From: Acidobacteriaceae bacterium
GTDB lineage: Bacteria; Acidobacteriota; Terriglobia; Terriglobales; Acidobacteriaceae
Direction of reading: 5' to 3'
DNA: 64,000 nucleotides
NCBI GenBank assembly: GCA_021323655.1
Contig: JAJPKO010000043.1
Location: 22,337-86,336 of the forward strand
Shown here piece by piece: positions 38,847 through 62,477 of this stretch. The notes below the pieces were generated by a model. It ran no database searches. It had not been told where the DNA came from and saw only the letters and a program-made list of their open reading frames with translations. Numbering within the stretch: position 1 is the stretch's first letter; every line of letters begins with the position of its first letter. The position numbers were made by a program, and so were the translations under genes.

Positions 38847-38855
38847 TAATGACCT

Positions 38856-43915: not shown

Positions 43916-43917
43916 CC

Positions 43918-45662
<1,745 letters not shown>

Positions 45663-45674
45663 CGAATTTGCACG

Positions 45675-45748
45675 CGGTGTTGGAGTCCACCGGAACAGCT
45701 CACACGGGCAAATGACTCCTCGAAGCGCGAAAACTTGGAGGAGTCATG
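45675..45748 (+). promoter_or_regulatory. Fluoride riboswitch (crcB motif) B with SD/start-codon-sequestering hairpin
   Basis: The sequence is CGGTG TTGGAGTC CACCG GAACA GCTC-ACAC-GGGC AAATGACTCCTC. The tail ATGACTCCTC (45712-45721) is perfectly complementary to GAGGAGTCAT (45738-45747), which covers the SD and the AT of the ATG at 45746. Confidence 0.8.
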
Positions 45749-47851
45749 CCCGAAATTGGCCCGGAGGCTACTCAAACTCGGAACCAGGGGGAACTAAACG
45801 AAGCTCAGCAGCGGCGTCTCTACGTCACTTGCTCGTACATCGATAAGCTGCTCGTAGAGATAGAACAGGTACTCCACGAGACGGCTTCGCCGTCCCCTTT
45901 CCCGCGTCACGTCATCGACATCACACCCGCGCAAGCGCGCGTGCTCGAAGATCACATTCGCCGTATTCGCGAACAGCTCTTGCGAACGCTTGACTGGCAA
46001 CAAATGAAGCCCGAATCACCGGAAATTCCGGCTACGCGGTCGGTCCTAACGCATCTCGAGTTCATCGACATTGCGGTTGAGGAACTCAAGCCAAGCTACA
46101 TGCGCGGTTCGGGAACAGTTCCCACAGACGCTGTCGATGAACTGACCGGTGTGGCCCACGAACTCCGATCAGTTGTGCAGAGCATGCAGCGCTATATCCG
46201 CCAGGAGTTTGGAACCAACCTTCAATCCCGCTTGGAATCGCTGGAGCAGACTGGCCATGATGTGGCTCTCCTGCGTGAACTCGAAGAGATCATTACTCGG
46301 CACGGTCTGGTTGAGTTCCGCTCTCGGATTGGTTCTCTCGCTCATCGCCTGGAGGACAACAATCTCGAAGTAGCGCTTTTTGGACGGGTCAGCTGCGGAA
46401 AATCCTCACTCCTGAATGCGCTTCTGGGAACGGCTGTCTTACCGGTGGGTGTCAATCCGATCACAGCCGTCCCAACGAAGTTGCGTTTTGGAAATGCCTT
46501 GCGAGCCGAAGTGACCTTTGGTACCGGCCGCGCGGAGGAGGTTTCCCTTGAGGAATTCGCGCAGCTGATCAGTGAGCAGGGAAACCCCGGAAATGCCCGG
46601 AGCGTTGTCCGCGCGATGGCGGAAGTACCATCGCCACGCCTGAAGAAAGGCATCCTTCTGGTCGATACGCCAGGTCTCGGCTCGCTCGCACGCCGTGGTG
46701 CTGCAGAGACTCTGGCCTATTTGCCGGCCTGCGATCTTGCCTTGGTGCTAATCGATGCCGGTGTGTCACTTAATGATGAAGACATCGGGACACTCCGCTT
46801 GCTTTACGAAGGCGGCATTCCGTCGATTGTGCTCCTCAGCAAGGCCGATCTTTTGCGAGAAGGCGATCTGCACCGGGTTACCGAGTACGTCCATGCGCAA
46901 TTGAAACGCGAACTCGGGATCAATACCCAAATCCATCCTGTCAGTTCCTTGCCGGAGTACTCTCTCCTGCTCGATCAGTTCTTTGAACGTGAGTTGTACC
47001 CGAGATTTGAGCAGGCCCGTAGTCTGCGCGAGGCTTCAGTCGCCAGAAAGATTGGGTCGCTTCGAGATTCCGTGAGTGCGGCTCTTGAGACCTCGCTGAA
47101 CCGCGAGAAGCGAGGGCGAGAGGTTATAAGTGCACTCGATGCTCATGACATAGAAGCACGGCTTCGCCACATCAACGGAGAAATCGGAGAACAGCGAACC
47201 CTGCTCAGTCAGGCGTTTTTTGAGCTTGGCGAACGCCCGGACGTGATCGTGGCAGAGCTTGCCGAGATGGTCACTCTGCGAATTGCTTCAGGCGAAAAGA
47301 GGCACTTCACTCCATTTGAGATATCCGAGTGGACCCACGATACAGTGCAGAGACGAATAGACGAGGCGATTGCAGGGGCCAGGAGCAGGCTGATGAGATC
47401 CATCGAGACATTAACAGAAATCGCCAGGGAAATGTCACGCTCCGACGTGCCTTCGAATGAAGACGCGGAACTACTTTTGCGTGAGGTGCCGCGGTTTGAG
47501 ATTGAAATCATCCCAGTAAAAATTGAGGCCGCCCGCTGGAAGTGGTTAGGAAAACGCATTGTGCGAGCGTTGGTGAAGAGCAACTTGCGGGAATGCCTTG
47601 GACCCTTGCTCAAGGACGAACTGCATCGCTACGAACGTGCGCTCGATCTGTGGACGGAGCAGGCGAGCAGAAAAATGGTAGCTCTTGTGAATTCATATGC
47701 GGACGCTTATCGCGCGCAGCTCAATCGTGTACGGGGGCTATCAGGAGGTGGCGAGACATCACCGGAGCTGGCTCAAGACCTTGCTCGGCTTCTGCGTTGG
47801 AATTCTAGTGAGCGCTCCGACAGCAAAACGCGCCTAGCGATGAACGAATAG
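45746..47851 (+). CDS. Bacterial dynamin-like GTPase
   Basis: G1 is GRVSCGKSSLLNALLG, G3 is LVDTPGLGS and G4 is LLSKADLL. Long helical regions flank the GTPase domain. Confidence 0.75.
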   Translation: MPEIGPEATQTRNQGELNEAQQRRLYVTCSYIDKLLVEIEQVLHETASPSPFPRHVIDITPAQARVLEDHIRRIREQLLRTLDWQQMKPESPEIPATRSVLTHLEFIDIAVEELKPSYMRGSGTVPTDAVDELTGVAHELRSVVQSMQRYIRQEFGTNLQSRLESLEQTGHDVALLRELEEIITRHGLVEFRSRIGSLAHRLEDNNLEVALFGRVSCGKSSLLNALLGTAVLPVGVNPITAVPTKLRFGNALRAEVTFGTGRAEEVSLEEFAQLISEQGNPGNARSVVRAMAEVPSPRLKKGILLVDTPGLGSLARRGAAETLAYLPACDLALVLIDAGVSLNDEDIGTLRLLYEGGIPSIVLLSKADLLREGDLHRVTEYVHAQLKRELGINTQIHPVSSLPEYSLLLDQFFERELYPRFEQARSLREASVARKIGSLRDSVSAALETSLNREKRGREVISALDAHDIEARLRHINGEIGEQRTLLSQAFFELGERPDVIVAELAEMVTLRIASGEKRHFTPFEISEWTHDTVQRRIDEAIAGARSRLMRSIETLTEIAREMSRSDVPSNEDAELLLREVPRFEIEIIPVKIEAARWKWLGKRIVRALVKSNLRECLGPLLKDELHRYERALDLWTEQASRKMVALVNSYADAYRAQLNRVRGLSGGGETSPELAQDLARLLRWNSSERSDSKTRLAMNE

Positions 47852-47863
47852 GGAGACAAGCAC

Positions 47864-48241
47864 TTGGAGAAATATTTCTATATCGCGATTGGAGGTTCGC
47901 TCGGGTCGATCGCCCGATACTGGGTCGGTACAACTGTGTCCGACCGCCTTGGTTCTAAGTTCCCTTATGGAACTTTCATCATCAACATTTCGGCCTGCAT
48001 CATTATCGGATTTGCGATCACGTGTTTGGGAAAGCACGTCGAATTGAATCCCGCATGGCGTTTCTTAATCCCGGTAGGATTCGTGGGCGCATACAGCACG
48101 TTTTCAACCTACGAATGGGAGACGCTATCGTCGATTCGGACAGGTGCATTCGCTCTCGCGGTTCTCTATTCGTTAACGAGCGTGGTTTTGGGAATTCTGG
48201 CCGCATGGGCCGGCGCCATTCTCGCGGAGGTGATCACGTGA
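47864..48241 (+). CDS. crcB: Fluoride ion channel CrcB/FluC
   Basis: IAIGGSLGSIARYWV, YGTFIINISACIIIGF and GFVGAYSTFSTYEWE are canonical CrcB motifs. The protein is 125 aa. Confidence 0.9.
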   Translation: MEKYFYIAIGGSLGSIARYWVGTTVSDRLGSKFPYGTFIINISACIIIGFAITCLGKHVELNPAWRFLIPVGFVGAYSTFSTYEWETLSSIRTGAFALAVLYSLTSVVLGILAAWAGAILAEVIT

Positions 48242-48804
48242 GAGCACATCGCCAAATCGTGCTTCATCAGTCCATCGAGGAACTCTTGCACGAGCCGGGA
48301 TGCCCGTTCTGCCGCTTTCTGAAGGATTTCCAGGCAGTTCATCTGCAGGGAGATTCCGCCAAGGAAATCCGTCGGCTCTGTAACTTTCACGCTTGGGGTG
48401 TGGCGGCGGTACAAGATGCCCAGGCGGCAGCGGACGTCTTCCTGACCCTGGTCAATGATGACGGATCAGTCCCGGGGCAACGGCCGGACTGCGACGTCTG
48501 CCGCAAGGTCATAGAGGAAGAGGATCGGAGAATTCGGGAGTTGGTCACCATGCTGGGAAAGCCTGATGTGGTGAGGTGGCTGCGAATGGAGGCCGTCTTC
48601 TGCATTCCGCACGCCGTCAAACTACGTCAAAAAGTGCCACTGACACTTACGGCGCGAATCGACGTGATCATTCGGAATTATCGTGAACAACTGAAGGACG
48701 AACTGATCCAATTGCGGAATGATCCGAGCCCTGATCGGTCAGGGTGGGGCGCACTTGGACGGGCTGCGGAGTTTTTAGTTGCGCAACGGGGACTCAGGAT
48801 ATAA
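48238..48804 (+). CDS. Cys-rich (CxxC / CxxH x2) protein of unknown function
   Basis: The GTG at 48238 overlaps the crcB stop (GTGA). Motifs are CPFC...CNFH...CDVC...CIPH. The track start at 48022 lies inside crcB. Confidence 0.5.
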   Translation: MRAHRQIVLHQSIEELLHEPGCPFCRFLKDFQAVHLQGDSAKEIRRLCNFHAWGVAAVQDAQAAADVFLTLVNDDGSVPGQRPDCDVCRKVIEEEDRRIRELVTMLGKPDVVRWLRMEAVFCIPHAVKLRQKVPLTLTARIDVIIRNYREQLKDELIQLRNDPSPDRSGWGALGRAAEFLVAQRGLRI

Positions 48805-48813
48805 GGAGGAAGA

Positions 48814-49581
48814 ATGCTGAACGTGGGGAAGGCTCTTAAAGTAGCCATCTACATCAGTGAAGGATCAACTCATCATGGGGTCGCGACATACTCCAGCATT
48901 CTCGATTTTCTATTCTATCGGGGCGTGTCGGGAGCAACGGTGACAAAGGGCATCGCAGGATTCGGCGCTGACCACCATATTCACACTTCGAGATCTGTTG
49001 AAATATCTGATCGTCTTCCATTGAAGATTGAGTTCATCGAGTCGCGTGAAAAGGTGAATGAGTTGCTTGGCAAGCTGGAAGAACTGGTCGGTACCGGAAT
49101 GATCGAGGTACAAGAGACAACGGTAGCCAAACCCGCCCAGAAAACCAAACCGAAAAGTGATACTGCTCCAGCTCACCTAAAGATCGAGGGCAAGGCCAAG
49201 ATGATGCGGATCTACATTGGCGAAGCAGACCGCTGGAGAGACAAACCGCTCCACACGGCCCTTATGGAAGCTATGCGCGCAAACGACATTGCCGGGGTTA
49301 CCGTTTATCGCGGCATCCTCGGGTATGGAGCGCATCGCAGGCTGCACAAGGACCGCGCACTTCATCTTTCCCACGATTGCTCAATCATGCTGTCAGCCAT
49401 TGATACAGAGGAGAAGCTCCAGGCATTTATGCCAATCGTGGAGCAGATGGTAGAGGAGGGCTTGATCGTTCTCTCTAACGTCGACATCATCAAGTACGCC
49501 TATCGTGCCGAAGGGTTAGATCAGCCAGAAGTAGTTCCTTCTTCTTCCCACACACCTGTGCAAGGAGATCAAACGCCATGA
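48814..49581 (+). CDS. Tandem DUF190 (PII-like, crcB-associated) protein
   Basis: There are two repeats of the pattern [LKVAIYISEG...GVSGATVTKGIAGFG] and [MRIYIGEADRW..KPLHTALMEAMRANDIAGVTVYRGILGYG]. Confidence 0.7.
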   Translation: MLNVGKALKVAIYISEGSTHHGVATYSSILDFLFYRGVSGATVTKGIAGFGADHHIHTSRSVEISDRLPLKIEFIESREKVNELLGKLEELVGTGMIEVQETTVAKPAQKTKPKSDTAPAHLKIEGKAKMMRIYIGEADRWRDKPLHTALMEAMRANDIAGVTVYRGILGYGAHRRLHKDRALHLSHDCSIMLSAIDTEEKLQAFMPIVEQMVEEGLIVLSNVDIIKYAYRAEGLDQPEVVPSSSHTPVQGDQTP

Positions 49582-49940
49582 AAGAGCAATTTGAGGCGAG
49601 GATGTTGCGTATTCATTTTGGTGAAGGAGATAAATGGCAGGGCAAACCACTGCATGAAGCGATTGTTGCCAAGTGTCAGGAACTTGGCTTGTCGGGCGCA
49701 ATCGTCTACCGGGGGATTGAAGGCTACGGAACGAGCACGCGAATTCATCATGCGAGTCATTGGAAGTTCTCAAAAGACGCTCCCATTATGGTGAGCATCA
49801 TTGATCAGGAGGAGCAGATTGACAAGCTGCTCCCTCACCTGGATGCCATGGTTGAAGAGGGACTGATCGCGATGTCCCGCGTGGAGGTGATCCGCTTCTC
49901 AAGAGGCCCGGTGAAAGAGGCGCCTGCTAAGTCACAGTGA
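49578..49940 (+). CDS. DUF190 (PII-like, crcB-associated) protein
   Basis: LRIHFGEGDKWQGKPLHEAIVAKCQELGLSGAIVYRGIEGYG. It overlaps the previous gene through ATGA. Confidence 0.7.
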   Translation: MKEQFEARMLRIHFGEGDKWQGKPLHEAIVAKCQELGLSGAIVYRGIEGYGTSTRIHHASHWKFSKDAPIMVSIIDQEEQIDKLLPHLDAMVEEGLIAMSRVEVIRFSRGPVKEAPAKSQ

Positions 49941-50175
49941 AGCAGTACAGCAACAGCGGAGCGGCCGAAGCGATTGAGCTGAGCTACGACTCGGCTGATC
50001 TATGTGATGTGTTCTTCGAGCTAACCTGCAGGGCATCAGCATAAGCGATATCACAAACTGGCAAAAGTGGAGTCGGCTGGATACTTGGGAGACGTGAGGA
50101 TCCAAATCAGCTCCTACACGAAGGTAGTCGTTACAAATTGGCGACCACAAGACTGTTGGAATCTACTGAAGGAGC

Positions 50176-50637
50176 ATGGACATAATGACAAAGGCCTTTT
50201 TTCAACGGGCTCTTGTAGGGGCCGATGGAACAGATGCCTCTCAACTGGCAATTGACGTAGCGATCGCACTTGCGAAGCGATTTGGTTCAGAGCTTCACTG
50301 CATCGGCGTCATCAGGCCCCCCAGTCCCGAAACGGAAGCAGAAGGGGTCGGATTTGAGCAGCTTGAACGAGATCACAAAGCGATTCGGGACCAAGTAGGT
50401 AGTTGTGCAGACAGAGCACGCGGCGAGGGAGTCCAAGCGATCACAGTCGAGCTTGACGGTGATCCGGAATCAGTCATTGAGAATTACGGTCTCGAGAACG
50501 AATTCGACATTATCATCGTTGGGCACCATCATCTGAACCGCTTCCGGCGCTTCCTCGAAGGATCTACCTCCGACAGCCTGGTCGAGCATTCTTCAGCTTC
50601 TGTTCTCGTTGTACGAGCCCCATCTCAAGAATCGTAA
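50176..50637 (+). CDS. Universal stress protein (UspA family)
   Basis: The C-terminal DIIIVGHHHLNRFRRFLEGSTSDSLVEHSSASVLVVR is the Usp ATP-binding-type motif G-x2-G-x9-GS. Confidence 0.8.
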   Translation: MDIMTKAFFQRALVGADGTDASQLAIDVAIALAKRFGSELHCIGVIRPPSPETEAEGVGFEQLERDHKAIRDQVGSCADRARGEGVQAITVELDGDPESVIENYGLENEFDIIIVGHHHLNRFRRFLEGSTSDSLVEHSSASVLVVRAPSQES

Positions 50638-51061: not shown

Positions 51062-53203
51062 CTATGTTGCTCTGTAGACAAACAGTACCAGGAGAAGGAA
51101 TACAAGTACGTAAACGACGTAAGCGTTAAGTTTGCCGTGATGCATACCGGCAAGGAAATCGGCGATTCCTCGCGCTGCAGCCCCCACAGGTTGCAGGATG
51201 AGCCGGTCCACGACATGGATCTCCTCGCGTTGTCTGTGAATGGCCGTCCGAAAATGTACCGCAACCGTTTGACGCGTGTCCTCGACGATGTTTGGCCGAA
51301 AGATGGCCTGAAAGACTACACGGACGGGATTGGAGAAGCCGGTTGGCGTGTATGTCAAGAGCGGAAGAAGCCGCGGAATGCCCCCCGCCCAGACTGGGCG
51401 TTTCACCAGGGTACGTTGCCGCGTCAAGCGCCGGAATACGAACCATGCGGCGGCGAACAATATCACCAATGCGATGATGCTGTAGGAAGGCGACATGGCG
51501 AAGACTACCGGATTCGTTTCACCTCCACGGAGAAGCACGACCAATCCACGGCCTGGAACCAAGCCCCTGCCGGTCTGCGCACCTAGATTGTGGAAGTCTG
51601 CGAGGAATGCGGGAGGCAATTGTGCATTCTCGGGAGTCGCCGTAAAGAACGGCTGCACAAGTGCCGTGGTAACGCTGGCTCCGGCAAGAGATTCCACGCT
51701 CTGGTTGAGGATCGGCAGGACGTAGGTTGGAAGGATTCCCAGCAGTAGGCAGATAACGGCCAGAAAGGCTAAAGGAAACTTGCTCGTTGCCTGCGCTTTG
51801 ACGTGAAGCTCCCAACTGCCTCTGCGGATGCCAAGAAAGTTCATGGCGTAGGTCTTTACAAAACAGGTCACAGCCAGTGCCGCGGTCAGTGCCAGAGCGG
51901 CGCCGCAAAGTGCAAAGACGATTCTCACGGAGGTGGACGCGAGGACCGCGCTGCGCAACAGCGATTGCAGGGTCATCCACTCACTGACAAATCCATTGAA
52001 TGGGGGCACTGCGGAAATTGCCAGGCAGCCGATAAGAAAGATGGCAGATAATTCCGGCAGAAATCTGGCTAGGCCGCCGAGTTGGTCCATTTCGCGTGTA
52101 CCTGTTGCGGCTTCTACATGTCCTGCGCCCTCGAAAAGCAGTGTCTTGTAGATCGAATGATTCACCATGTGATAAAGCACCGCGGAAAGCGCGAGTGCTG
52201 CGGCAACTGGTTGACTGAAAGCCCGAAAGACCAGAAAGGCACCCAGGGCGGCGACAATAATGCCCGCATTCTCGATCGAGCTGTGAGCGAGCATCGTTTT
52301 CATGTCGCCGTCCGTTGTTGCATATAGAATCCCCACGAGCGCGGTGATGCTGCCGGTGATCAACGCCACCAGGCCCGTCCCGTAGCCCGCGTGCATGAGA
52401 TCGGCATTGAGGCGCAGGATTCCATAAAACCCGAGATTGAGTGTGATGCCAGCGAAGACAGGTATGAAGATAGGCGGGGCGGCGGTATAAGACCGCGGCA
52501 ACCAGAAATTGACCGGGACGAGGCCGGCCTTCACTCCGAAGCCAAAGAACCCCAGTAGGAACGGCAACCAAAGCGTGTCTGGCGAGAGCGTTGCACATGC
52601 CGAGCGCAAGGCCGTAAACGAGAAGTCCGTCGCGGAACGGGCAAGTAACAAAAATGCCACCGCAACCGCAAGAAATCCCGCTTCACTCATTGCCAGCATG
52701 ATGTAACCGGCAGACTTGTCCAGTTGTCCTTTTGGATCGTAGTTGATCAGCAAAAAGCAGAGACTGGACATGCATTCCCAGCTAATCAGGAAGAGGACAA
52801 TGTCGCCGGCCACGAGAATCAAGACCACCGCAGCCATGAGCGCAAAATAGAGAATCGCGTAATAGAGGTGGGGATGCGCTTCGTCCGTCTGATGTTTGAG
52901 GAAGCTCCCTGCGAATAACGAAACTGAAAAATAGACGACTCCGGAAACGAGAAGAAAAATGGACGAAACGGAATCGAGATGAATGGTGAAGCGCCCAAAT
53001 CCATCGAGCGTCCAAAGCGCAGCTTCGAAGGGCTGGCCCATCAGCAGCACAGATGCTGATGTCAGGACCATAAGGATCGACGACAGCGCACCGGCAATAG
53101 ACAGCACCGTTGGAACCTGCTTGTGGCCAAGCAACGCCGAAGCGAAAACTCCTGCTGCGCAAGCGACGAAGATCGCAACCAGGAATGAGCCGGTAATGGT
53201 CAT
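51062..53203 (-). CDS. HyfB/NuoL-like antiporter-type membrane subunit
   Basis: 713 aa polytopic protein. GFFGFGVKAGLVPVNFWLPRSYTAAP and HSSIENAGII are characteristic of NuoL/M/N-Mrp-type subunits. Confidence 0.8.
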   Translation of the reverse strand: MTITGSFLVAIFVACAAGVFASALLGHKQVPTVLSIAGALSSILMVLTSASVLLMGQPFEAALWTLDGFGRFTIHLDSVSSIFLLVSGVVYFSVSLFAGSFLKHQTDEAHPHLYYAILYFALMAAVVLILVAGDIVLFLISWECMSSLCFLLINYDPKGQLDKSAGYIMLAMSEAGFLAVAVAFLLLARSATDFSFTALRSACATLSPDTLWLPFLLGFFGFGVKAGLVPVNFWLPRSYTAAPPIFIPVFAGITLNLGFYGILRLNADLMHAGYGTGLVALITGSITALVGILYATTDGDMKTMLAHSSIENAGIIVAALGAFLVFRAFSQPVAAALALSAVLYHMVNHSIYKTLLFEGAGHVEAATGTREMDQLGGLARFLPELSAIFLIGCLAISAVPPFNGFVSEWMTLQSLLRSAVLASTSVRIVFALCGAALALTAALAVTCFVKTYAMNFLGIRRGSWELHVKAQATSKFPLAFLAVICLLLGILPTYVLPILNQSVESLAGASVTTALVQPFFTATPENAQLPPAFLADFHNLGAQTGRGLVPGRGLVVLLRGGETNPVVFAMSPSYSIIALVILFAAAWFVFRRLTRQRTLVKRPVWAGGIPRLLPLLTYTPTGFSNPVRVVFQAIFRPNIVEDTRQTVAVHFRTAIHRQREEIHVVDRLILQPVGAAARGIADFLAGMHHGKLNAYVVYVLVFLLLVLFVYRAT

Positions 53204-53206
53204 GAA

Positions 53207-53962
53207 TCAGGGTCTCCCTTCGGAGATTGGTCTCGGACTGTTCAACGATTTCCTTCCTGCAACCACCAGAAGCCCATGCAGTATTGCCAGAGGAGGCGGC
53301 GGGTTGCCTGGAACTTCAAAATCGACCGGCAAGACCGCGCTCACTCCACACGCGCACATGAAGCTTTTGCCGAAGACCCCGCCTGCTATAGCGCAGCCGC
53401 CGACGGCCATCACCTTTCTGGTGGTTGGCATGGCTTCCCAGGTCTTGAGCAGTGGTCCGCGCATGTTCTCGCTTACCGGCCCCACGACAAGCAGAAGGTC
53501 TGCGGTGCGAGGAGTGGCGGTCAAAAAGAACCCAAGGCGATGCATGTTGTAGAGAGGGTTGTTGAGCTGCTTCACCTCATGAAGGCAAGCGCCGCAGTCT
53601 CCGGCATCCACGACCATGATGTGCATCGACTTCGCAAAGGACGCTGGGAAGGGGAGCGCCTCCTTTCCATCTGCAGGCAAGCGGGTCCATTCATAGCCAG
53701 TTTCCCAGTTCATGGGGGATTGCAAGGAGTGCAGACAGAGTTGGCAATGCACGCATTTCCCGGGATTCACGTAGGTTGATTTCCCATGGGCGACGATCGC
53801 ATCGGTCGGACAAATTTCAGCGGCGAGTTGGGCCTCTTCAACTGTCGAAAAATCGGTGTTCACCGGACGTCCTGGTGAGACTCCGGGCGTGTTTTCCGCT
53901 CGCGCGGGGTAGCGAGTCGATTGAATGCCTTTGCGCAATCCGTGCCAGAACCAGAAGCTCAT
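53207..53962 (-). CDS. NuoB/HycG-like small subunit fused to a single-cluster ferredoxin-like N-terminus
   Basis: ICPTDAI plus CVHCQLC form the ferredoxin-like part. VVDAGDCGACLHE and AVGGCAIAGG are NuoB-type. The usual PGCPP is PGNPPPP here, so the fourth Cys is absent. Confidence 0.7.
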   Translation of the reverse strand: MSFWFWHGLRKGIQSTRYPARAENTPGVSPGRPVNTDFSTVEEAQLAAEICPTDAIVAHGKSTYVNPGKCVHCQLCLHSLQSPMNWETGYEWTRLPADGKEALPFPASFAKSMHIMVVDAGDCGACLHEVKQLNNPLYNMHRLGFFLTATPRTADLLLVVGPVSENMRGPLLKTWEAMPTTRKVMAVGGCAIAGGVFGKSFMCACGVSAVLPVDFEVPGNPPPPLAILHGLLVVAGRKSLNSPRPISEGRP

Positions 53963-53974
53963 CGTGAGCCACCT

Positions 53975-55600
53975 CTACCGATCACATTCGGTTGCGGACA
54001 GCCCGAAAGTTGCAAGAATGATCGGGAAATCCTGAAACGCGAAATTCTCTGCCGCAACGTGAAACCCGAGCCAATTGTTGAAGGACGGCGTAATTGCCCG
54101 ATATCGCTCGACAATCCCTCTTTCGTCCACTCGCAGCCAGTGAAGGGCGGCGCCTCTTGGGGCTTCTGTCCATCCAAGTGCAGCACCCGCGTGATTTACT
54201 TCATAGGCAACACGAACGGGACCCCCCTCCAACGTGTCGGCAACTTGATGGATCAGTCTCGCCGACTGTGTCGCTTCCGCAAAAAGGATGCGCAGTCTGG
54301 CATAGCCATCGCCCTCTGTCTCGCAGGGAACATCAAACGCAAGTCGTCCGTAGCCAGAATAGGAGCACGCCCGCCGCAAGTCGCAGTGCTGAGCGGAAGC
54401 ACGACCAATTGGGCCCACGAGATTCAGATCCCGGGCGCTCTCTCCAATGACGACCCCCACGTCCTCAAGACGGTCAAGGAAACTGCTGCTCAAGCGAAGC
54501 CGTCTCTCCAGGATGCGAAGATCGCTCTCCGCCTTATCGACTGTGGCGAGCAACGTTTTGCATTGCTCCAATTCGAAATCGCGATTCAGTCCGCCTGGAG
54601 TGTTCAGCCCGAACAGGTAGCGGTGATCCGTGAACACACAGGAGGCGCGGAGCAACTGCTCTTCGATGATCGACGCTTGTGCGGCAGCGACGGCCAGCGC
54701 GGTGGACTCACATATCGCCGCGATCGCACCTGCGTGGTGTCTCAATCGTTCCAGTTCAGCAAGCAGAACCCGAAGAGCCGCGGCTCGTGGCGGCGCCTCG
54801 ACCGCTGCAATTCTCTCGGCAGCGAGACAGAAGGCGAGCGAATGGGCAAATGCGGAGGTGGCAGCAAATCTTTCTGCCAGGAGGAGCGCATCCGGAATGC
54901 TGCGGCCCTCTGCGATCTTTTCGACGGCCCGGTAGTTGTAGAAAAGTCGGGGAGCCGCACGGATCACATCTTCACCGACCGTCTCGAGCAAAAAGTGCAA
55001 GGATTCCCCAATGCCGCCCTCGTATACGGGGCCAACCGGCATCGCGAACGAGCCGGGGTCTCCGACAACCAACAATGGCTGCCACTCCAGGTCCACTTTG
55101 CGCTCGAGTTGTGGACGTTCGGCCGAAAAGGTCTTGCGCATCGGATCGATGCCCTCGTGCCAGATCTGGTCGTGCAAGACAAAATCGCCGAGCCGCGGGT
55201 GGTTCTCGAAATGGATTCCAAACAGATCCTCTATTTCGCGTTCATGCCAATCTGCGGCGTGTACCTCGGTGACAATGCTGGGCAGGGTCTTTGTCTCAAG
55301 CGCCATCGAGAACTCTACATCGATCCATCCCGACCCAGGCAGGAGAAACGTGTAGTGGATCTGCCAATGGTTTGAATGCTCCTCGGCCGTGATTCCACCG
55401 AACAGGCAGCCGTGTTCCCAAAAAAGAAATTGAGCCAGGGTCGGCAGCGCACTTGGCTGACCAACTGAAAGCGTCAGAATAAAATTCGCGCCCGCTCTCA
55501 GTTGGGCAACCTGGTCTCCGAATCGCTCTACGATCATGCCTGTCAGATCGGCCAAGCCTGCTATATTCCCTCCGGCAATGGGTGAGGAATGCGTTGCCAT
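53975..55600 (-). CDS. NuoC-NuoD/HycE-like large subunit lacking the NiFe-binding cysteines
   Basis: The NuoC-like part contains WHEREIEDLFGI. The NuoD/HycE-like part has ERFAATSAFAH where hydrogenases have RxCGxCxxxH, and a C-terminus GLSATECDR instead of DPCxxCxxR. The ATG at 55600 is preceded by GGGAGGA. Confidence 0.75.
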   Translation of the reverse strand: MATHSSPIAGGNIAGLADLTGMIVERFGDQVAQLRAGANFILTLSVGQPSALPTLAQFLFWEHGCLFGGITAEEHSNHWQIHYTFLLPGSGWIDVEFSMALETKTLPSIVTEVHAADWHEREIEDLFGIHFENHPRLGDFVLHDQIWHEGIDPMRKTFSAERPQLERKVDLEWQPLLVVGDPGSFAMPVGPVYEGGIGESLHFLLETVGEDVIRAAPRLFYNYRAVEKIAEGRSIPDALLLAERFAATSAFAHSLAFCLAAERIAAVEAPPRAAALRVLLAELERLRHHAGAIAAICESTALAVAAAQASIIEEQLLRASCVFTDHRYLFGLNTPGGLNRDFELEQCKTLLATVDKAESDLRILERRLRLSSSFLDRLEDVGVVIGESARDLNLVGPIGRASAQHCDLRRACSYSGYGRLAFDVPCETEGDGYARLRILFAEATQSARLIHQVADTLEGGPVRVAYEVNHAGAALGWTEAPRGAALHWLRVDERGIVERYRAITPSFNNWLGFHVAAENFAFQDFPIILATFGLSATECDR

Positions 55601-55601
55601 C

Positions 55602-57047
55602 TCAATGTCCTCCCAATTGCTGCGCCGCAAGTGTCATGAGCGAATGAACAGGTCCAGGAATGTATACCCCGAGAAGTAGGACTGGCGCGACAGCAATAAG
55701 GACCGCCGTTCGGCAACTTCTGGGCGCCAATGCTGGAGTTGCAACATGCGAGGGTTCGCCGAACAACATGCTGTTCACCTGCAGGAAAATGGCTATGAAT
55801 GCGATGACAATTAGGACAGCAAGAATGATGACAGCGGCACTATGCCCTGATCTGAGGCCAGCAGACAAGATTGAAAACTCACTGAGAAAGATCGGAAATG
55901 GCGGCGCACCGGCGATCGCGAGCGAACAAAGCAGTAGCGCGCCGCCCGCAAACGGGGATATACGGAACAGCCCCCGCACCTGGCTGATATCGCGCGTCTC
56001 GAGTGCCAGCAAAACCATCCCTGCTGCGTAGAAACACAGGGACTTGGTAATCGAGTGATTCAACATCTGAGCAACAGCCCCATAGGCCGCAGCGTGCGTT
56101 GCGAAGCCGGTCGCGGTGAGAATGATTCCCATGTGTTCTACAGTGGAGTAGGCGAACATGCGCTTGTAGTCGCGCACCTGCAAGAGCAGGAATGCCGCGA
56201 TCCCCACAGAGAAGAGGCCCACGATCACCATCCACTCGCCGATACGCGCCTCGGGCGAGCGCAGAACGATGGAGAGCAGCCGCAAGACAGCGTACAGAGG
56301 AATCGTGGTCTTCATCCCCGAGAGCACAGCGCATATCGGAGTGGGCGCCTGACTATGAGCATCTGGGAGCCAGGTGTGCATGGGTGCAAGCCCGGACTTG
56401 GCACCGAACCCCACAAAGACCAGCAGAAATGACAATTTCAATAAATTGGGCGACATGGTTGAGGCCATCACATAGAGGCTTTGCCAGGTCTCGGCTGTCC
56501 CCCCGCCGCTGGTGCGAAATGCCCAATAGAGGGTCAAAAATCCAAAGAGCGAAATTGGCGCTCCCATGATGGTCAAGATTGCCATCTTCCAGGCGGCCTC
56601 GAGAGCGCCTGGGGTGCTTTCATACCCGACCAACAACGTCGCAAACAACGTGACCAACTCCACGGCCACCCAAACGAGATTGACCCGAGCCAACGAGGGA
56701 ACCGCCACCAGCGAAAAGACGAACAGATTGTAGTTCGAATAAAACCACCACAAGCGTTCCTTGGACTCGGTTTCGTGCTGCATATAGCCGCCAGAATAGA
56801 TAGCGGCAACGATGCAGACAAAAGTGACCATGACGAGGAGAAGAGCGCTCAGGCCATCCGCCTCAAACCATCCAGCAATCGCGATGAAGCGTCCGTTCAA
56901 GAGAACCTGCCACGCAGTAACACACGCGGCTGAAAGGGTAAGCGCAAGAATGACTATCGTTATAACCCAAGCCATGCGGCGCAACGGCGGGAGCCAACAC
57001 AAGAATGCGGCAAGGAGCGGCAGCGACACAGCAAACATTAGTGCCAT
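55602..57047 (-). CDS. HyfF/NuoN-like antiporter-type membrane subunit
   Basis: 481 aa polytopic protein. GFGAKSGLAPMHTWLPDAHSQAP and STVEHMGII are present. Confidence 0.8.
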   Translation of the reverse strand: MALMFAVSLPLLAAFLCWLPPLRRMAWVITIVILALTLSAACVTAWQVLLNGRFIAIAGWFEADGLSALLLVMVTFVCIVAAIYSGGYMQHETESKERLWWFYSNYNLFVFSLVAVPSLARVNLVWVAVELVTLFATLLVGYESTPGALEAAWKMAILTIMGAPISLFGFLTLYWAFRTSGGGTAETWQSLYVMASTMSPNLLKLSFLLVFVGFGAKSGLAPMHTWLPDAHSQAPTPICAVLSGMKTTIPLYAVLRLLSIVLRSPEARIGEWMVIVGLFSVGIAAFLLLQVRDYKRMFAYSTVEHMGIILTATGFATHAAAYGAVAQMLNHSITKSLCFYAAGMVLLALETRDISQVRGLFRISPFAGGALLLCSLAIAGAPPFPIFLSEFSILSAGLRSGHSAAVIILAVLIVIAFIAIFLQVNSMLFGEPSHVATPALAPRSCRTAVLIAVAPVLLLGVYIPGPVHSLMTLAAQQLGGH

Positions 57048-57730
57048 GTCCGGGGCTCCTCTCGCAGTTCACTCATGGCAGCGGCTTCGGTCGTCCCGAC
57101 CGTTCTGGTGATGTTCCTGGTTAATACACCAACAACCACAACAATCAGAATTACGTCGATCGCAATGGCGAGTTCGGCAATCAATGGAAGATCCGGAGCA
57201 ATCGCGATGCCGGCGAAAAAGGCGCCGTTCTCCATTGCGAGAATGCCAATGAGTTGGGGAATAGCTTCGCGGCGTGCGACCAGCGAATATGCACCGATCA
57301 ATAGTCCCGCCATGCCAATGGGCAAATTCGCCTGTACAACCGGGTCCTTTGCGGCCGTCACAAGAGGGCCGACCAGGAACTCTGCAGCAATTGCAAGCGA
57401 TAGTGCAATCAATAGTGACGTGGGAATGTTGATGAGTTGGTCGATCTCGCGGCGCTCATAGAGATCCGCCGGCAGCATCCGTCTGAGAACCCACGGGATC
57501 GTGATTACTTTTGATGCGATCATGATGCAGCCAAGAGCCAAGAGGTCGATTGAACCGCGATTGAACCCGATTAAGAAGGCAGACGCTGCCACGAAGAGCG
57601 ATTGAACAACGAGAAATCTTAAAACACCCTGTACCTGACGGGTCGTCACCATCGCAAAGGCTGCTAATAGGACAAGTCCCGCGGCCAAGGCGTTGAGTCC
57701 CTGAATAAGCTGTGTGTGAGCGCTTACCAC
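57038..57730 (-). CDS. HyfE-like membrane subunit
   Basis: 230 aa. IGILAMENGAFFAGIAIAPDLPLIAELAIAIDVIL matches the HyfE/NuoK-like pattern. Confidence 0.7.
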   Translation of the reverse strand: MVSAHTQLIQGLNALAAGLVLLAAFAMVTTRQVQGVLRFLVVQSLFVAASAFLIGFNRGSIDLLALGCIMIASKVITIPWVLRRMLPADLYERREIDQLINIPTSLLIALSLAIAAEFLVGPLVTAAKDPVVQANLPIGMAGLLIGAYSLVARREAIPQLIGILAMENGAFFAGIAIAPDLPLIAELAIAIDVILIVVVVGVLTRNITRTVGTTEAAAMSELREEPRTWH

Positions 57731-57743
57731 CGGCGACTCCTTT

Positions 57744-58703
57744 CTAAGCAGCCGAAGCTGAAAAGATGCTCGCGATCATCGCTGCCACAGAGATGATGAA
57801 TGCGGCTCCAAGAAACTCGCTAATGCGAAAGAGGCGCAACTTCGCGAGAGAGGACTCGATCATGACGAGGACGATCGTGAACAAAAGAATCTTGAGCAGT
57901 ATCAAAGGAATCGCGAGCAGCACGTGGACAGGCTGCACATCCCCGGCCAGGCCCCAAGGCGCCAGAAGGACGTTGAGGAAGATACAAGTGAGCACCAGAA
58001 ATTTCATTTGGCCGCCCCACTTCATCAAGGCGGCGCCGCGACCCGAGTATTCAAGCCCTTTCGACTCATCGATCATGGCGAGTTCAAAATGCCCCGTGGG
58101 GTTGTCGACGGGGACCTTTCCACCTTCGGCAAGGATCAGCATCAGGAAGGCAATCAGCAACAGAATGTGCGCAGGAGAAAAGAATGCGGCTGGGCTCGCG
58201 ACCCATTTCTGCTGAACAATGTACGGAATCGTGGATTGGGCTACGAACGAGACGGTGAAAAAGACAATCATGAACACCGGCTCGGCGAGGAACCCCACCA
58301 TTCGCGTTCTGCTCGCTCCCATAGGACCGTATGGGTTTCCGGTATCGACGGCCGCAAGGGCGGCAAAGAAACCGCCAAGTCCGAGAAAGAAGCCGCCGGC
58401 GAGCATATCGCCCATAAACGCAAAAGCTAGGGGATAATCCGTGAGGACCGGTATCAGGCTCGCGACGAACAGCGGCACGATGAAAACCAGGTAAGGCGTC
58501 ACGCAAAAGATCCACGTGGTTTCCGAGGAGACAACCTCGTCTTTATGAAAAAGCTTCCAGAGATCCCGATAGGGCTGAATGATGCTGGGACCGCGCCTGC
58601 TCTGAACCATTTCTTTGAACCGGCTGAGCATGCCAGAGTACAAGGGCGCGAAGCCAAGTACGAAGAGAAGCTGAACGAGGTTATACAGAATTGTCCGTGC
58701 CAT
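57744..58703 (-). CDS. HycD/HyfC/NuoH-like membrane subunit
   Basis: APLYSGMLSRFKEMVQSRRGPSIIQPYRDLWKLFHKDEV is the typical HycD/NuoH N-terminal motif. It is the first gene of the operon. Confidence 0.8.
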   Translation of the reverse strand: MARTILYNLVQLLFVLGFAPLYSGMLSRFKEMVQSRRGPSIIQPYRDLWKLFHKDEVVSSETTWIFCVTPYLVFIVPLFVASLIPVLTDYPLAFAFMGDMLAGGFFLGLGGFFAALAAVDTGNPYGPMGASRTRMVGFLAEPVFMIVFFTVSFVAQSTIPYIVQQKWVASPAAFFSPAHILLLIAFLMLILAEGGKVPVDNPTGHFELAMIDESKGLEYSGRGAALMKWGGQMKFLVLTCIFLNVLLAPWGLAGDVQPVHVLLAIPLILLKILLFTIVLVMIESSLAKLRLFRISEFLGAAFIISVAAMIASIFSASAA

Positions 58704-58903: not shown

Positions 58904-58970
58904 GGCGCGACTCCTATGAGGTAGGAATCATCAGCCGTGAAGGCGGTTATCGGTGGAGTTCCATCACCGT
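58904..58970 (-). promoter_or_regulatory. Fluoride riboswitch (crcB motif) C, minus strand, about 215 nt upstream of the Hyf-like operon
   Basis: The minus strand reads ACGGTGATGGAACTCCACC GATAAC CGCCTTCACGGC TGATGATTCCTACC. The tail TCCTA can pair with the downstream TAGGA of a TAGGAG SD that precedes the GTG at 58903. Confidence 0.75.
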
Positions 58971-59140
58971 CCCGACATGTGCTGCCAACATATTGAACCG
59001 CAAGAACCTACTTGTCAAGGCGACCACCGCCGCCACGGCATATCGCATCCAGCGTCAGCGCGATCGGAGCAGTGCGCCCCGGACGTGATTCGGCGCGTCA
59101 TTGACAGTCCACCACACCGGTCACGATACTGACTGGGAGC

Positions 59141-59212
59141 GGGTGTTGGAGTCCACTCTGATACGCCCCTCCCACGAGGGGAAGATGACTCCTGCGAGTA
59201 GGACAGCAGGAG
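59141..59212 (+). promoter_or_regulatory. Fluoride riboswitch (crcB motif) D with SD-sequestering hairpin, upstream of the MutS-related pair
   Basis: The sequence is GGGTG TTGGAGTC CACTC TGATACG CCCCTC-CCAC-GAGGGG AAGATGACTCCTGC. The tail ACTCCTGC is perfectly complementary to GCAGGAGT (59205-59212), which contains the AGGAG SD. Confidence 0.8.
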
Positions 59213-59218
59213 TTGACT

Positions 59219-60877
59219 GTGCCAACGAACCCCGCCAATCGCCCAGCCCCGGAGCCCCGGCTACAAAGCAACCCTCCAGCAATCACTCCAGGCAACGAGA
59301 CAAACCCTGATGCTTCAGCCTTTCACAGCATCCTGACCGAGTGTCAGGATGTCGACGGGCAGTCTGAGATCCAGGAAGCTCCTGGATTCTTTAGCGATCT
59401 CAATCTCGATCAGATCGTCGGCACGATCACGGCCGGACGAGAACAGTACGATTTGAAGCCACTCTTCTATACGCCCCTAAAGACCGTTGAGGCTGTTCAC
59501 TATCGGCAGGACGTCTTCCGCGATCTTTCAGGGAATTTCCGCCTATTGGAACTGGTTCGTTCATTTGCGGAAAGAATGCGGGAGATGCGAACTCTTCTCG
59601 CGATTTCCGAAAAGCGATACTACAAACGTCAAAAGCAAGCCGCCTTTCTCGATGCCGTTGAAACATACTGCAATACTGTCACGGTGCTTAAGGAAGGCCT
59701 GCTCTCCACAGGTCCTGCGTCGCGAGGATTCCAGGCGCTTCGCGGTTTTCTTGTCCGCTACACCGGCTCAGAAGAGTTCACCAGCCTGAAGAAGGAAACG
59801 GAGCGGGTCAGAGCAGAGCTCGCGAAGGTCCGATATTCGCTTCACATCCATCAGGGGCGTGTCACGGTCAACCGCACTGACACGGAAGGCGACTACAGCG
59901 AGGAAGTTCTCAGAACCTTCGAAAAATTCCGGCAGACGGATCCGCGAAGCCATCGCTTCAAGGTTCCCCTATCGATTGAGATGAATCACATTGAGGCACG
60001 AATCCTCGATCTGGTCTCCGCATTGCATTCGGAAGCATTTGCCCGCCTAGACGCGTATTGCGACCGATACCGCAACTACTGTCATCAGCTGATTGCCAGA
60101 TTCGATCGCGAAGTACAGTTCTACATCGCCTATCTCGAACAACTGGAACAGTTGAAGAAGGCAGCGCTTCCGTTCTGTTTCCCAGGCGTGAGCAGCCATT
60201 CGAAGGAAGTGCAGGCGCTCGACACCTACGATGTTGCGCTTGCGAATCAGCTGATTCATGCCCGGAAAGATGTGGTTAAAAACAGCTTTTGCTTGAACGA
60301 ACCCGAGCGCACTTTAGTCGTCTCTGGGCCCAATCAAGGCGGGAAGACCACGTTTGCGCGCACCTTTGGACAGCTACATTATCTGGCGGCTCTGGGCTGT
60401 CCGGTGGCGGGCATCTCAACAAAATTATTCCTATTTGATCGACTCTTTACGCACTTCGAGAAGGAAGAGGACATTCAAAATCTACGCGGGAAGCTTGAAG
60501 ACGAGCTGATCCGCATCAACGAGATTCTTGAGAATGCGACAGCGAACAGCATCCTCATAACGAACGAGAGCTTTTTGTCGACGACGATGAACGACGCTCT
60601 CTTTCTCAGCCGCGAGGTGATGAAGCGGATCGCCGCTCTCGATATGCTTTGCGTGACTGTTACGTTTCTCGATGAATTGGCTTCATTCAACGAAACGACT
60701 GTAAGCATGGTCAGCACGGTGAATCCCACGGATCCGCAGCAGCGGACATTCAAAGTGATCCGGAGACCGGCTGATGGCCTTGCTTACGCAGCAGCGATCG
60801 CCGAGAAATATCACCTGACCTACGAGGCAGTGAAGACGCGGGTAGGTGCGAGGGAAAGCGAGGTGAACGAGTCATGA
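59219..60877 (+). CDS. MutS-related ATPase (domain V type, no mismatch-binding domain recognised) 1
   Basis: Walker A is VVSGPNQGGKTTFARTFGQL. The Walker B-like segment is SILITNESFLSTT. The GTG at 59219 lies 6 nt after AGGAG; the track start TTG at 59213 has no spacing. Confidence 0.7.
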   Translation: MPTNPANRPAPEPRLQSNPPAITPGNETNPDASAFHSILTECQDVDGQSEIQEAPGFFSDLNLDQIVGTITAGREQYDLKPLFYTPLKTVEAVHYRQDVFRDLSGNFRLLELVRSFAERMREMRTLLAISEKRYYKRQKQAAFLDAVETYCNTVTVLKEGLLSTGPASRGFQALRGFLVRYTGSEEFTSLKKETERVRAELAKVRYSLHIHQGRVTVNRTDTEGDYSEEVLRTFEKFRQTDPRSHRFKVPLSIEMNHIEARILDLVSALHSEAFARLDAYCDRYRNYCHQLIARFDREVQFYIAYLEQLEQLKKAALPFCFPGVSSHSKEVQALDTYDVALANQLIHARKDVVKNSFCLNEPERTLVVSGPNQGGKTTFARTFGQLHYLAALGCPVAGISTKLFLFDRLFTHFEKEEDIQNLRGKLEDELIRINEILENATANSILITNESFLSTTMNDALFLSREVMKRIAALDMLCVTVTFLDELASFNETTVSMVSTVNPTDPQQRTFKVIRRPADGLAYAAAIAEKYHLTYEAVKTRVGARESEVNES

Positions 60878-62418
60878 AAGTCTTCCTCATGTTTCGGGAC
60901 CACGACTTTGTCCTCGACGAGGGTATCCCGGAAAATGCGCAAGAAACGATTCAGGATCTTGAGTTGAACACCCTGTTTCGGGCCGTGGCTGGCGGCGATG
61001 ATTTTCTACTGCAAGTTGCGAAAGGTGCCGTGCTCGCAAGCCTCAAGAATCGAGAATCCATCCTTTATCGGCAGGAGGTGCTTGCGGACTGCCTGGCATT
61101 CCCCGACATTGCGCGAGATCTCTACGCTCTCGCAGTTGATGCCATTGAACGCGAGAGCCGGATCTGGGGTTGGTTCGCGCTTTCTTCTCCGGACTCGCTG
61201 CTGCACCGATCGGTCGAAGCTTTGGGACTTCTTATTGGGTTGCTTGAGCGCCTAAGAAAACTGGCTGATGAACACAGTTCCAAATTCCGCTCAGAAGGCT
61301 TCCGGTGGTTCTTTGGCATGGCCACTCAGGAACTGTCCGATAGCTACCTGCAAGCTGTGAAGGACCACCTGGTAAGACTGGAGTTCCGCGGCGGCGTTCA
61401 AATGAGCGCCGATCTGGGGCGCGATTTTCGAGGCTCCAATTACACTCTCCACAGCCTTGAGGTAGAGGCACTGGGTTGGTTCGAACAGGTCCGGGAATGG
61501 GTCGGCCAGATCACGCGCAAAGATGACTCGGGGCTGTCATTCGACGTTGACCCACGCGACGAGGCGGGCTTCCGTGCATTGGAAGCGCTCAGAACGGAGG
61601 GGATCGCCAATGTCGCTATTGCGTTGGCGCAATCGAGCGATCACATTCTTAGTTTCTTTAAGGCGCTGCGATTGGAATTGGGATTCTATATAGGATGCCT
61701 AAATCTGCGGGACAAACTCGCCGCGAAACAGGAGCCCTTCTGCATTCCAAATCCACTGCCAGAGAAAGACGAAGTACTTCGGTGCCAGGGAATCTACGAC
61801 GTTTGCTTGACCCTGAACACAGCCGAGCGGGTGGTCGGCAACGACGTCTGCGGGGAGAAAAAAGCCTTGGTTGTGATTACGGGCGCCAACCGCGGCGGCA
61901 AGTCGACACTCTTACGGAGCTTTGGCGTGGCTCAGCTGATGATGCAGTGCGGCATGTTCGTACCGGCGCGCGAATTCCATGCGAATGTCTGCCAGGGCAT
62001 CTTTACCCATTTCAAGCGAGAAGAAGATGCCAGCATGAAAAGTGGCAAACTGGACGAAGAACTCAGCAGAATGAATGCCATTGTAGAGCGAATTACACCT
62101 CGTTGCGTGCTTCTTCTAAATGAGTCGTTTGCTTCAACCAATGAGCGGGAGGGGTCGGAAATCGCCAGACAGATCGTTCGCGCTCTCCTTGAAAAACAGG
62201 TAAAGATTCTCTATGTCACGCACATGTTCGATCTGGCGGATGGGTTTCATCGGCAGCACATGGAGTCTGCACTCTTTCTTCGTGCCGAGCGCCTCGAGGA
62301 CGGCACGCGTACTTTCCGCCTTTTGGAAGGGGTGCCTGAGAGAACCAGCTATGGGGAAGATCTGTTCCGGCGCATTTTTCAGGCTGAACCTGAGAGCCTT
62401 CAGCCCACCGCGCAGTGA
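60874..62418 (+). CDS. MutS-related ATPase (domain V type) 2
   Basis: Walker A is VVITGANRGGKSTLLRSFGVAQLMMQCGMFVPA. The Walker B-like segment is VLLLNESFASTNEREG. Its ATG overlaps the upstream stop. Confidence 0.7.
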   Translation: MKVFLMFRDHDFVLDEGIPENAQETIQDLELNTLFRAVAGGDDFLLQVAKGAVLASLKNRESILYRQEVLADCLAFPDIARDLYALAVDAIERESRIWGWFALSSPDSLLHRSVEALGLLIGLLERLRKLADEHSSKFRSEGFRWFFGMATQELSDSYLQAVKDHLVRLEFRGGVQMSADLGRDFRGSNYTLHSLEVEALGWFEQVREWVGQITRKDDSGLSFDVDPRDEAGFRALEALRTEGIANVAIALAQSSDHILSFFKALRLELGFYIGCLNLRDKLAAKQEPFCIPNPLPEKDEVLRCQGIYDVCLTLNTAERVVGNDVCGEKKALVVITGANRGGKSTLLRSFGVAQLMMQCGMFVPAREFHANVCQGIFTHFKREEDASMKSGKLDEELSRMNAIVERITPRCVLLLNESFASTNEREGSEIARQIVRALLEKQVKILYVTHMFDLADGFHRQHMESALFLRAERLEDGTRTFRLLEGVPERTSYGEDLFRRIFQAEPESLQPTAQ

Positions 62419-62477
62419 TGATCCGACAAGGAGTAATGAAATAAGAATTCAAACTGCGGTCACGATGGATACCGGGA

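Follow-up and report, generated by a model that had tools for sequence, protein, structure and literature searches.

Complexes related to the energy-converting hydrogenases (Ehr) are described in the literature that defines the family (PMC6349859, PMC10284858, PMC6728331) as relatives of the group 4 hydrogenases that lack the CxxC motifs, carry Mrp-like subunits and serve a function stated to be unknown. Here we describe a six-gene operon from a 64,000-nucleotide stretch of an Acidobacteriaceae genome (assembly GCA_021323655.1, contig JAJPKO010000043.1, positions 22,337 to 86,336; hereafter the window), which lies behind a fluoride riboswitch aptamer and is predicted to encode an Ehr-type complex rather than the hydrogenase that its database names announce. 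Like other Ehr complexes, it combines NuoB-like, NuoH-like and Mrp/antiporter-like subunits with no maturation genes nearby. In contrast to them, its lineage begins the operon with the NuoH-like gene, ends it with the HyfB-like gene and carries a fluoride riboswitch in nearly every genome examined. In the subclade of the window, moreover, the distal ferredoxin cluster is lost, as is ligand four of the proximal one.

The formate hydrogenlyase (FHL) of E. coli (Hyc, PDB 7z0s) and its hydrogenase-4/FHL-2 (Hyf) share with this operon homologues of HycD, HycE, HycG and HycC as well as HyfE-, HyfF- and HyfB-type subunits. However, the window operon has neither the Ni-Fe site nor FdhF, HycB or a separate two-cluster HycF, its genes are ordered differently, and it is placed under riboswitch control, whereas the E. 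coli system is governed by FhlA and formate. Compared to respiratory complex I (Nuo/NDH-1), whose core of at least 11 subunits includes NuoA, NuoJ and a full NuoI, it is reduced to six genes. A modular, complex-I-like ion-translocating membrane arm is also common to MBS/MBX and MBH of Thermococcales and to Mrp. MBS/MBX likewise lack the Ni-Fe ligands, but MBS and MBH are built of 13-14 subunits, which include a NuoI-like subunit with two clusters and a complete Mrp module, and MBS reduces polysulfide. Mrp antiporters (CPA3), in turn, consist of the MrpA-G set without a peripheral arm, whereas the window operon joins MrpA/D-like and NuoK-like parts to a peripheral NuoB/NuoD-like arm.

Six contiguous open reading frames (ORFs) on the minus strand fill positions 51062-58703 exactly, and Pfam and NCBIfam matches bear out the subunit order given in a preliminary description of the window. 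In the direction of transcription, gene A (57744-58703) encodes a NuoH/HycD-like membrane subunit of 319 aa (Pfam NADHdh, 3.3e-31; HycD, 7z0s_D, 1.2e-39) and gene B (57038-57730) a small HyfE-like membrane subunit of 230 aa with a NuoK-like C-terminus (NCBIfam hydrogenase 4 membrane subunit, 5.8e-19; weak Pfam Oxidored_q2). Gene C (55602-57047) encodes a HyfF/NuoN-like antiporter-like subunit of 481 aa (NCBIfam hydrogenase 4 subunit F, 3e-96; Pfam Proton_antipo_M, 5e-47), followed by the fused NuoC-NuoD/HycE-like large subunit of gene D (53975-55600, 541 aa), which matches Pfam Complex1_30kDa, Complex1_49kDa (2e-36), the NiFeSe_Hases tail (1.3e-9) and HycE (7z0s_E, 1.7e-52). The reading frame of gene D is open from 55630, and since all database homologues start at the ATG at 55600, this is probably its start, which gives the 541 aa. 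Gene E (53207-53962) encodes the NuoB/HycG-like small subunit of 251 aa with an N-terminal one-cluster ferredoxin remnant (Pfam Oxidored_q6, 1.8e-20), and gene F (51062-53203) a HyfB/NuoL-like antiporter-like subunit of 713 aa with a long C-terminal extension (NCBIfam hydrogenase 4 subunit B, 2.5e-138; HycC, 7z0s_C, 1.1e-54). PDB searches with four of the subunits (large, small, HyfB-like and NuoH-like) gave the E. coli FHL chains of 7z0s as the best homologues, and the HyfB-like subunit additionally matched MBH subunit H and MrpA/MrpD structures. None of the six proteins matched MrpB, MrpE, MrpF or MrpG in Pfam and NCBIfam. We also considered a degenerate locus and rejected it, as all six ORFs are intact and their functional residues strongly conserved across phyla.

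For comparison, one genome per GTDB species was scanned, and the best 80 of 221 relatives (54-87% identity) were kept. These loci derive from Acidobacteriota, Binatota (Binataceae), deltaproteobacteria of the Desulfobacterota type, Verrucomicrobiota (Verrucomicrobiia), Planctomycetota, NC10, Nitrospira, a metagenome-assembled genome (MAG) labelled Firmicutes, and Stellaceae. Wherever the contig allows, the order A-B-C-D-E-F is constant, and NuoA and NuoJ are absent from this fixed six-gene operon.

The large subunit has lost its nickel-iron ligands. In a phmmer alignment to HycE (7z0s_E, E=1.7e-52), RvCGiCgfaH of the hydrogenase is paired with RfaatsafaH of the window protein, AATS standing in place of CGxC. 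In a MAFFT alignment of 107 diverse representatives, which include HycE-like (DRVCGICGFAHS...LDPCYSCTDR) and other Cys-complete sequences, LDPCYSCTDR of the Cys-complete relatives is paired with FGLSATECDR, with LSATEC opposite PCYSCT. The four Ni-Fe ligand positions of the window protein read Ala, Ser, Ser and Glu, with no Cys among them, and the four Cys ligands typical of group 4a [NiFe] hydrogenases (RxCGxCxxxH, DPCxxCxxR) are not present. A misalignment of existing CxxC pairs was considered and rejected, since the two alignments, independent of each other, both show the pairs to be absent. The preliminary description was thus right about the degenerate N-terminal motif (ERFAATSAFAH), and comparison to HycE and HycG confirms the ligand losses that it had read by eye, with no CxxC pair mis-registered. 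Its statement that at most one of the four ligand Cys is left needs correction: the loss is real, but none is left, as the Cys of ECDR lies one residue beyond ligand 4. Because C, N or S occupies that position among the 80 related loci, this Cys is, on the alignment, not a conserved ligand.

The same ligand loss is kept across the 80 loci, in which Cys never occurs at ligand position 2 and in only about 7 loci at position 1, and positions 3 and 4 are invariably Ser and Glu. To our knowledge, every characterised [NiFe] hydrogenase needs four Cys/Sec ligands. Read from its residues, the complex should be able neither to evolve nor to oxidise H2, because the nickel-iron site is lost. Furthermore, alignments to Nqo4 and NDUFS2 showed that the quinone-site Tyr and His of NuoD are not retained (RLDY against RFAA, HPSTHG against YEGGIG). 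The positions corresponding to Y87 and H38 of Nqo4 read Ala and Ile/Gly in the window protein. Homology to the group 4 large subunit and NuoD, no CxxC motifs, and NuoB-like, NuoH-like and Mrp/antiporter-like partners together fit the published definition of the Ehr family, and the earlier assignment of the operon to this type stands. FdhF, HycB, NuoEFG, Hyp proteins or a HycI-type endopeptidase were not found among the window ORFs scanned, a scan that took in small ORFs in part, nor were FdhF, HycB, NuoEFG or Hyp proteins among the conserved neighbour families of the 80 loci. The earlier claim that the window holds no formate dehydrogenase, hyp or endopeptidase genes therefore applies to every ORF scanned.

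The iron-sulphur clusters of the small subunit have been affected in a graded manner. In the alignment to HycG (7z0s_G), the CxxC and the third Cys of the proximal cluster site are kept and PGCPP is changed to PGNPP, leaving three Cys and an Asn. The N-terminal ICP...CVHCQLC aligned to the CP...CxxCxxC [4Fe-4S] half of 7Fe and 8Fe ferredoxins (E=0.003), a set of four Cys that binds one [4Fe-4S] cluster. Both features, the PGNPP substitution and the single-cluster ferredoxin-like N-terminus, had been noticed before and are corroborated by these alignments. By topology, the N-terminal cluster presumably corresponds to the N2-proximal cluster (N6b) of NuoI. Within the window subclade, the CP, CxxCxxC, CxxC and third Cys are all conserved among the 80 loci, and the fourth proximal ligand is N (27) or D (30), otherwise S, C, Q, H, F or A. 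Deeper fluoride-associated members instead hold PGCPP together with two complete CxxCxxCxxxCP motifs, i.e. a full NuoI-like domain, which in locus L086 forms a separate gene. The ligands are lost in steps: two full ferredoxin motifs with PGCPP occur in L083, L085, L086 and L088, one remnant cluster with PGCPP in L081, and one remnant cluster with PG[N/D]PP in the window subclade, whereas L084 has no ferredoxin domain at all. Since the deeper members keep the full clusters, the fluoride-linked lineage appears to have begun with the usual three-cluster chain, which the branch of the window would later have pared down.

The ion-translocation residues of the membrane arm, in turn, are near-invariant. 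Across 65-67 relatives, whose proteins have an overall identity of 0.62-0.80 to those of the window, E143, K225, H349, K353 and E408 of the HyfB-like subunit are 100% conserved and K302 98%, and in the HyfF-like subunit E130, K217, K295, H331, K335 and E390 are conserved at 97-100%. E141, E193, D200, E213, E218 and E283 of the NuoH-like subunit, the best-conserved of all (mean identity 0.80), reach at least 97%, and in the HyfE-like subunit E167 and E186 are 100% and D192 96% conserved. The residues predicted to translocate ions are, by this measure, under strong constraint.

The fluoride riboswitch aptamer (crcB motif, RF01734) lies on the same strand as the operon at 58915-58977, 212 nt upstream of the first start codon, and was recognised at full length by Rfam (cmscan, E=4e-12 and 53.8 bits, where the gathering score is 34) and by our covariance model R1 (70.7 bits). 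The preliminary description had placed the operon behind such an aptamer, and the aptamer is real, but it is situated outside the quoted interval 51062-58703. In the minimum free energy fold of the leader, a long hairpin at 58942-58898 (minus strand; CUUCACGGC...GCCGUGAAG) takes up the 3' half of the aptamer and is presumed to be the competing OFF state, i.e. the expression platform. An equivalent hairpin (CUCCUAC...GUAGGAG) is found in relatives. There, a U-run such as marks intrinsic terminators often comes directly after it, a combination that corresponds to the textbook ON-switch terminator.

R1 was built from 13 aptamers and gave 169 matches in 81 sources; it was used in place of a hand-written pattern that matched only 14 of the 80 loci. 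Among the 66 loci with enough upstream sequence, 61 carry an aptamer on the same strand within 600 nt of gene A, mostly at 100-250 nt. As R1 under-scores aptamers with long P2 inserts, several were recovered by Rfam, which confirmed three weak R1 matches above the gathering score and added one aptamer that R1 had missed, bringing the total to at least 62 of 66. In two of the loci left over, aptamers lie farther upstream, at 1.3-2.3 kb. The association extends to deeper relatives, for which the representatives of 50%-identity clusters were searched exhaustively with HMMER. All six Cys-less relatives at 35-43% identity with usable contigs have a NuoH-first operon, and in each of them an aptamer that passes the Rfam cutoff precedes gene A by 100-210 nt (P0146, P0189, P0171 and P0155, whose contigs are too short, were left out of this comparison). 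In the plasmid collection, relatives did not exceed 35% identity. These figures indicate that the pairing of aptamer and operon is, as far as genomes tell, near-obligate across phyla.

As a control, we examined 80 metagenome loci of another clade (HAGIIEPGH...NKSFNLSYAG type) with a HyfB-first gene order, in which the large subunit is by alignment Cys-less in 68 cases and Cys-complete in 9. No credible aptamer was detected by R1 in these 80 loci (807 kb; best E-values 0.13 and 0.65), 31 of which comprise at least 500 nt upstream of the operon. A crude neighbour-joining tree, to be taken as a sketch only, separates the fluoride-linked and the control clades. The presence of aptamers in the one and their absence from the other indicate that the fluoride switch is a trait of one Ehr lineage, and not of Ehr complexes generally. 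In the single example of the control clade that was inspected (L092/L093), a gene for an ArsR-type helix-turn-helix regulator precedes the HyfB-first Cys-less operon, and genes for a DEAD/Hrq1-like helicase and a cation-efflux (CDF) protein follow it, which hints at a different, possibly metal-related, control of that lineage.

On these grounds we propose that the operon encodes a fluoride-inducible Ehr-type membrane complex that would move ions to counter fluoride stress, a proposal that we hold with moderate confidence, evenly divided for and against. When cytoplasmic fluoride rises, F- would bind the leader aptamer and keep its 3' strand out of the competing hairpin, so that the six-gene mRNA is made; sequence, conservation and the known behaviour of riboswitches all point to this induction step. 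The products would assemble into a minimal complex-I/FHL-like machine, an architecture drawn from homology. Its membrane arm would consist of the NuoH-like, the HyfE-like and the two antiporter-like subunits with intact chains of charged residues, and its small peripheral arm (NuoC-NuoD-like and NuoB-like) would have lost the NiFe and quinone-site residues and kept no more than two Fe-S cluster sites. Under fluoride stress, the cytoplasm becomes acidic and the proton-motive force is drained, and ion transporters are common riboswitch cargo (PMC11139923). HF enters by diffusion and F- exits through Fluc/CrcB, which brings in one H+ per cycle, and fluoride inhibits phosphoryl-transfer enzymes. 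We infer that the complex moves protons outward, or swaps cations for protons, and would thereby restore cytoplasmic pH and proton-motive force. A role in ion or proton homeostasis under fluoride rather than in H2 metabolism had been suggested in the preliminary description, and this idea gains support because the pairing is nearly universal, is absent from the sister clade, and accompanies ion-translocation residues that are near-invariant. Lastly, a soluble donor of the ferredoxin type might feed electrons into the N6b-like and N2-like cluster pair and so drive a conformational pump as in MBH and FHL. Such electron input is favoured as the energy source because the cluster ligands are conserved and the large peripheral arm has been kept, but it is the weakest and least certain step, which we consider conceivable though on balance doubtful. 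There is no support for the bolder idea that fluoride itself is handled by the altered pocket or by the three-Cys cluster.

Several observations weigh against this proposal. A pocket without the NiFe ligands and without the Tyr and His of NuoD seems to offer no obvious site for a redox reaction, and the conserved neighbourhoods encode no electron donor or acceptor module near the operon. The loss of the distal cluster and a fourth ligand so variable as to include Phe and Ala look like relaxed selection on electron transfer, which would favour a redox-independent machine. The sequence does not reveal which ion is transported, nor in which direction. The hairpin of the window leader has no U-tract, and a terminator scan of this leader was empty, so that the switching mechanism described above is a putative one there. 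Furthermore, we found no report of activity, expression or phenotype in the literature for any member of the lineage.

The complex might instead be a redox-independent secondary transporter performing Mrp-type cation/proton antiport on existing gradients, its NuoB/NuoCD-like arm, with Fe-S clusters of a structural role, being only a vestigial cap or a regulatory plug. Such a gradient-driven antiporter is favoured because active site and partners are missing (about 90 loci show neither donor nor acceptor genes within the operon or around it, and the NiFe and quinone-site residues are absent) and because the Fe-S chain is eroding in the window lineage, with the distal cluster lost and N, D, S, Q, H, F or A as fourth ligand. 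The NuoH-like subunit being the most conserved protein and the antiporter residues being invariant would agree with it, as would the second rank of Na+/H+ antiporters among riboswitch cargo (PMC11139923). However, purifying selection across phyla maintains both the peripheral arm, about 790 residues in size, and two sets of cluster Cys, neither of which true Mrp complexes need. In addition, the deeper members have the complete three-cluster chain, and homologues of MrpB, E, F and G are missing. We consider such a transporter unlikely, albeit the strongest competitor of our proposal.

Alternatively, the operon might provide a fluoride-hardened substitute for a respiratory enzyme, namely an oxidoreductase between ferredoxin (or another donor) and quinone, which would bind quinone at a non-canonical site and be induced once fluoride disables normal energy conservation. 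Many riboswitch-controlled genes indeed duplicate functions that are sensitive to fluoride, enolase and pyrophosphatase among them, the architecture resembles that of minimal complex-I relatives, and Fe-S ligands are retained. Yet the Tyr and His positions of the NuoD quinone site are replaced in the alignments to Nqo4 and NDUFS2, NuoA and NuoJ genes are missing, and we know of no evidence for complex I as a fluoride target, which together make this substitute improbable. Finally, that the automatic annotation is right and a [NiFe] hydrogenase of the FHL/hydrogenase-4 type consumes protons as H2 in fluoride or acid stress is scarcely credible despite the database names ('formate hydrogenlyase subunit 5', 'Ni,Fe-hydrogenase III large subunit'), the treatment of the riboswitch cargo as FHL in the literature (PMC2864571, PMC11139923) and the best PDB matches to E. 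coli FHL subunits, given four non-Cys metal-ligand positions, only the first of which is ever Cys in relatives, and no FdhF, HycB, Hyp or HycI among the scanned window ORFs or in the conserved neighbourhood.

The operon is surrounded by classic fluoride-regulon genes, its neighbours being enolase, CrcB, DUF190, universal stress proteins, MutS-like pairs, soluble pyrophosphatase, metallophosphoesterase, DUF6062 and dynamin-like GTPases. In the window, a second fluoride aptamer (43827-43901, plus strand; Rfam 39.1 bits) heads a convergent operon on the plus strand, which encodes enolase (44358-45662), a dynamin-like GTPase (45746-47851), CrcB (47864-48241), a weak DUF6062-like ORF (about 48250-48804), two DUF190 proteins (48814-49940) and a universal stress protein (50176-50637). 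Together, the convergent operon (43827-50637) and the Ehr operon form a fluoride-response island of about 20 kb. A further candidate aptamer between the enolase and GTPase genes (45665-45730, plus strand) reached 23.5 bits with R1 and had no Rfam match at E<=1; this doubtful match was set aside, being in all likelihood a chance hit or a decayed copy. The stretch 59101-63689, which is read divergently from the Ehr leader, contains an aptamer-like element (59133-59201, plus strand; Rfam 20.7 bits with a cutoff of 34, R1 22.4 bits). It is degenerate, deviating at conserved nucleotides, and is preceded by a promoter-like TTGACA-18-GATACT. On its 3' side follow two MutS-domain-V genes (59213-62418) and then an MFS transporter (62478-63689). 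Several relatives, e.g. L023, L055 and L081, have an Rfam-passing aptamer at the equivalent divergent position.

Some of the related loci are even denser: among L001-L088, up to five fluoride aptamers occur in about 21 kb (e.g. L054, L057, L065, L074 and L078), including an aptamer directly after the HyfB-like gene (at about 14.5 kb in locus coordinates) and divergent aptamer pairs. Dense fluoride islands seem to be typical of these MAGs, several of which are labelled bog or palsa. In L083 (13277-15484), an aptamer (Rfam 40.5 bits) is located directly upstream of a membrane H+-translocating pyrophosphatase (PF03030), which adjoins genes for a universal stress protein and enolase downstream of the Ehr operon, and chorismate mutase and dynamin-like GTPase genes lie upstream behind another aptamer. 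The combination of aptamer and H+-pumping pyrophosphatase fits a need for proton extrusion. Just downstream of the fluoride-associated Ehr operon of L086 (13111-14395 of that locus), a HEARO RNA (RF02033, 107.8 bits) lies by an ORF with an RRXRR domain, a mobile element of the IscB/HNH type. Elsewhere in the window, upstream of the fluoride island, an ORF at 36321-37835 has Prok-E2 and ThiF (E1-like) domains and another at 40604-41575 begins with a sequence that is TIR-like by eye only ('FFSYSHVD...'); the stretch 36321-41575 could be a defence-type gene cluster.

The pairing of crcB motifs with 'formate hydrogen lyase' has been known since 2010-2012, and Ehr is an established family; both preceded the preliminary description. 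Weinberg 2010 lists formate hydrogen lyase genes downstream of crcB motifs (PMC2864571), and a 2024 review, with reference to Baker 2012, counts FHL among the commonest riboswitch-associated enzymes and explains it as an enzyme that 'oxidizes formic acid' (PMC11139923). This listed cargo is almost certainly the same gene class as the window operon. These papers take the annotation at face value, whereas the cargo sequences analysed here cannot be expected to form a hydrogenase. In a literature search that was not exhaustive, we found no paper linking Ehr to fluoride or noting the ligand loss in riboswitch cargo. As an instance, an Ehr complex within a fluoride regulon is ordinary; what is new is the non-hydrogenase reading of the 'FHL' cargo and its near-obligate, lineage-specific pairing with the riboswitch.

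Two literatures that have not yet been joined, fluoride biology with its FHL cargo and bioenergetics with its widespread Ehr complexes of unknown function, thereby meet in one operon, and thousands of database entries are marked out as systematically mis-annotated (under the names 'formate hydrogenlyase subunit 5' and 'NADH-quinone oxidoreductase subunit C'). Ehr complexes gain a first testable physiological context, and it is suggested that, in acidic soils, the repair of pH and proton-motive force belongs to the core of what protects bacteria from fluoride. We tentatively put forward, with somewhat less than even confidence, that the NuoH-first Ehr lineage is dedicated to fluoride resistance, its complex-I-like pump having been repurposed to maintain pH and proton-motive force during HF/F- cycling. 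If this is true, its deletion would make acid-soil bacteria hypersensitive to fluoride, and the complex would provide the first physiological function for any Ehr complex as well as a new class of fluoride resistance beside Fluc and CLC-F.

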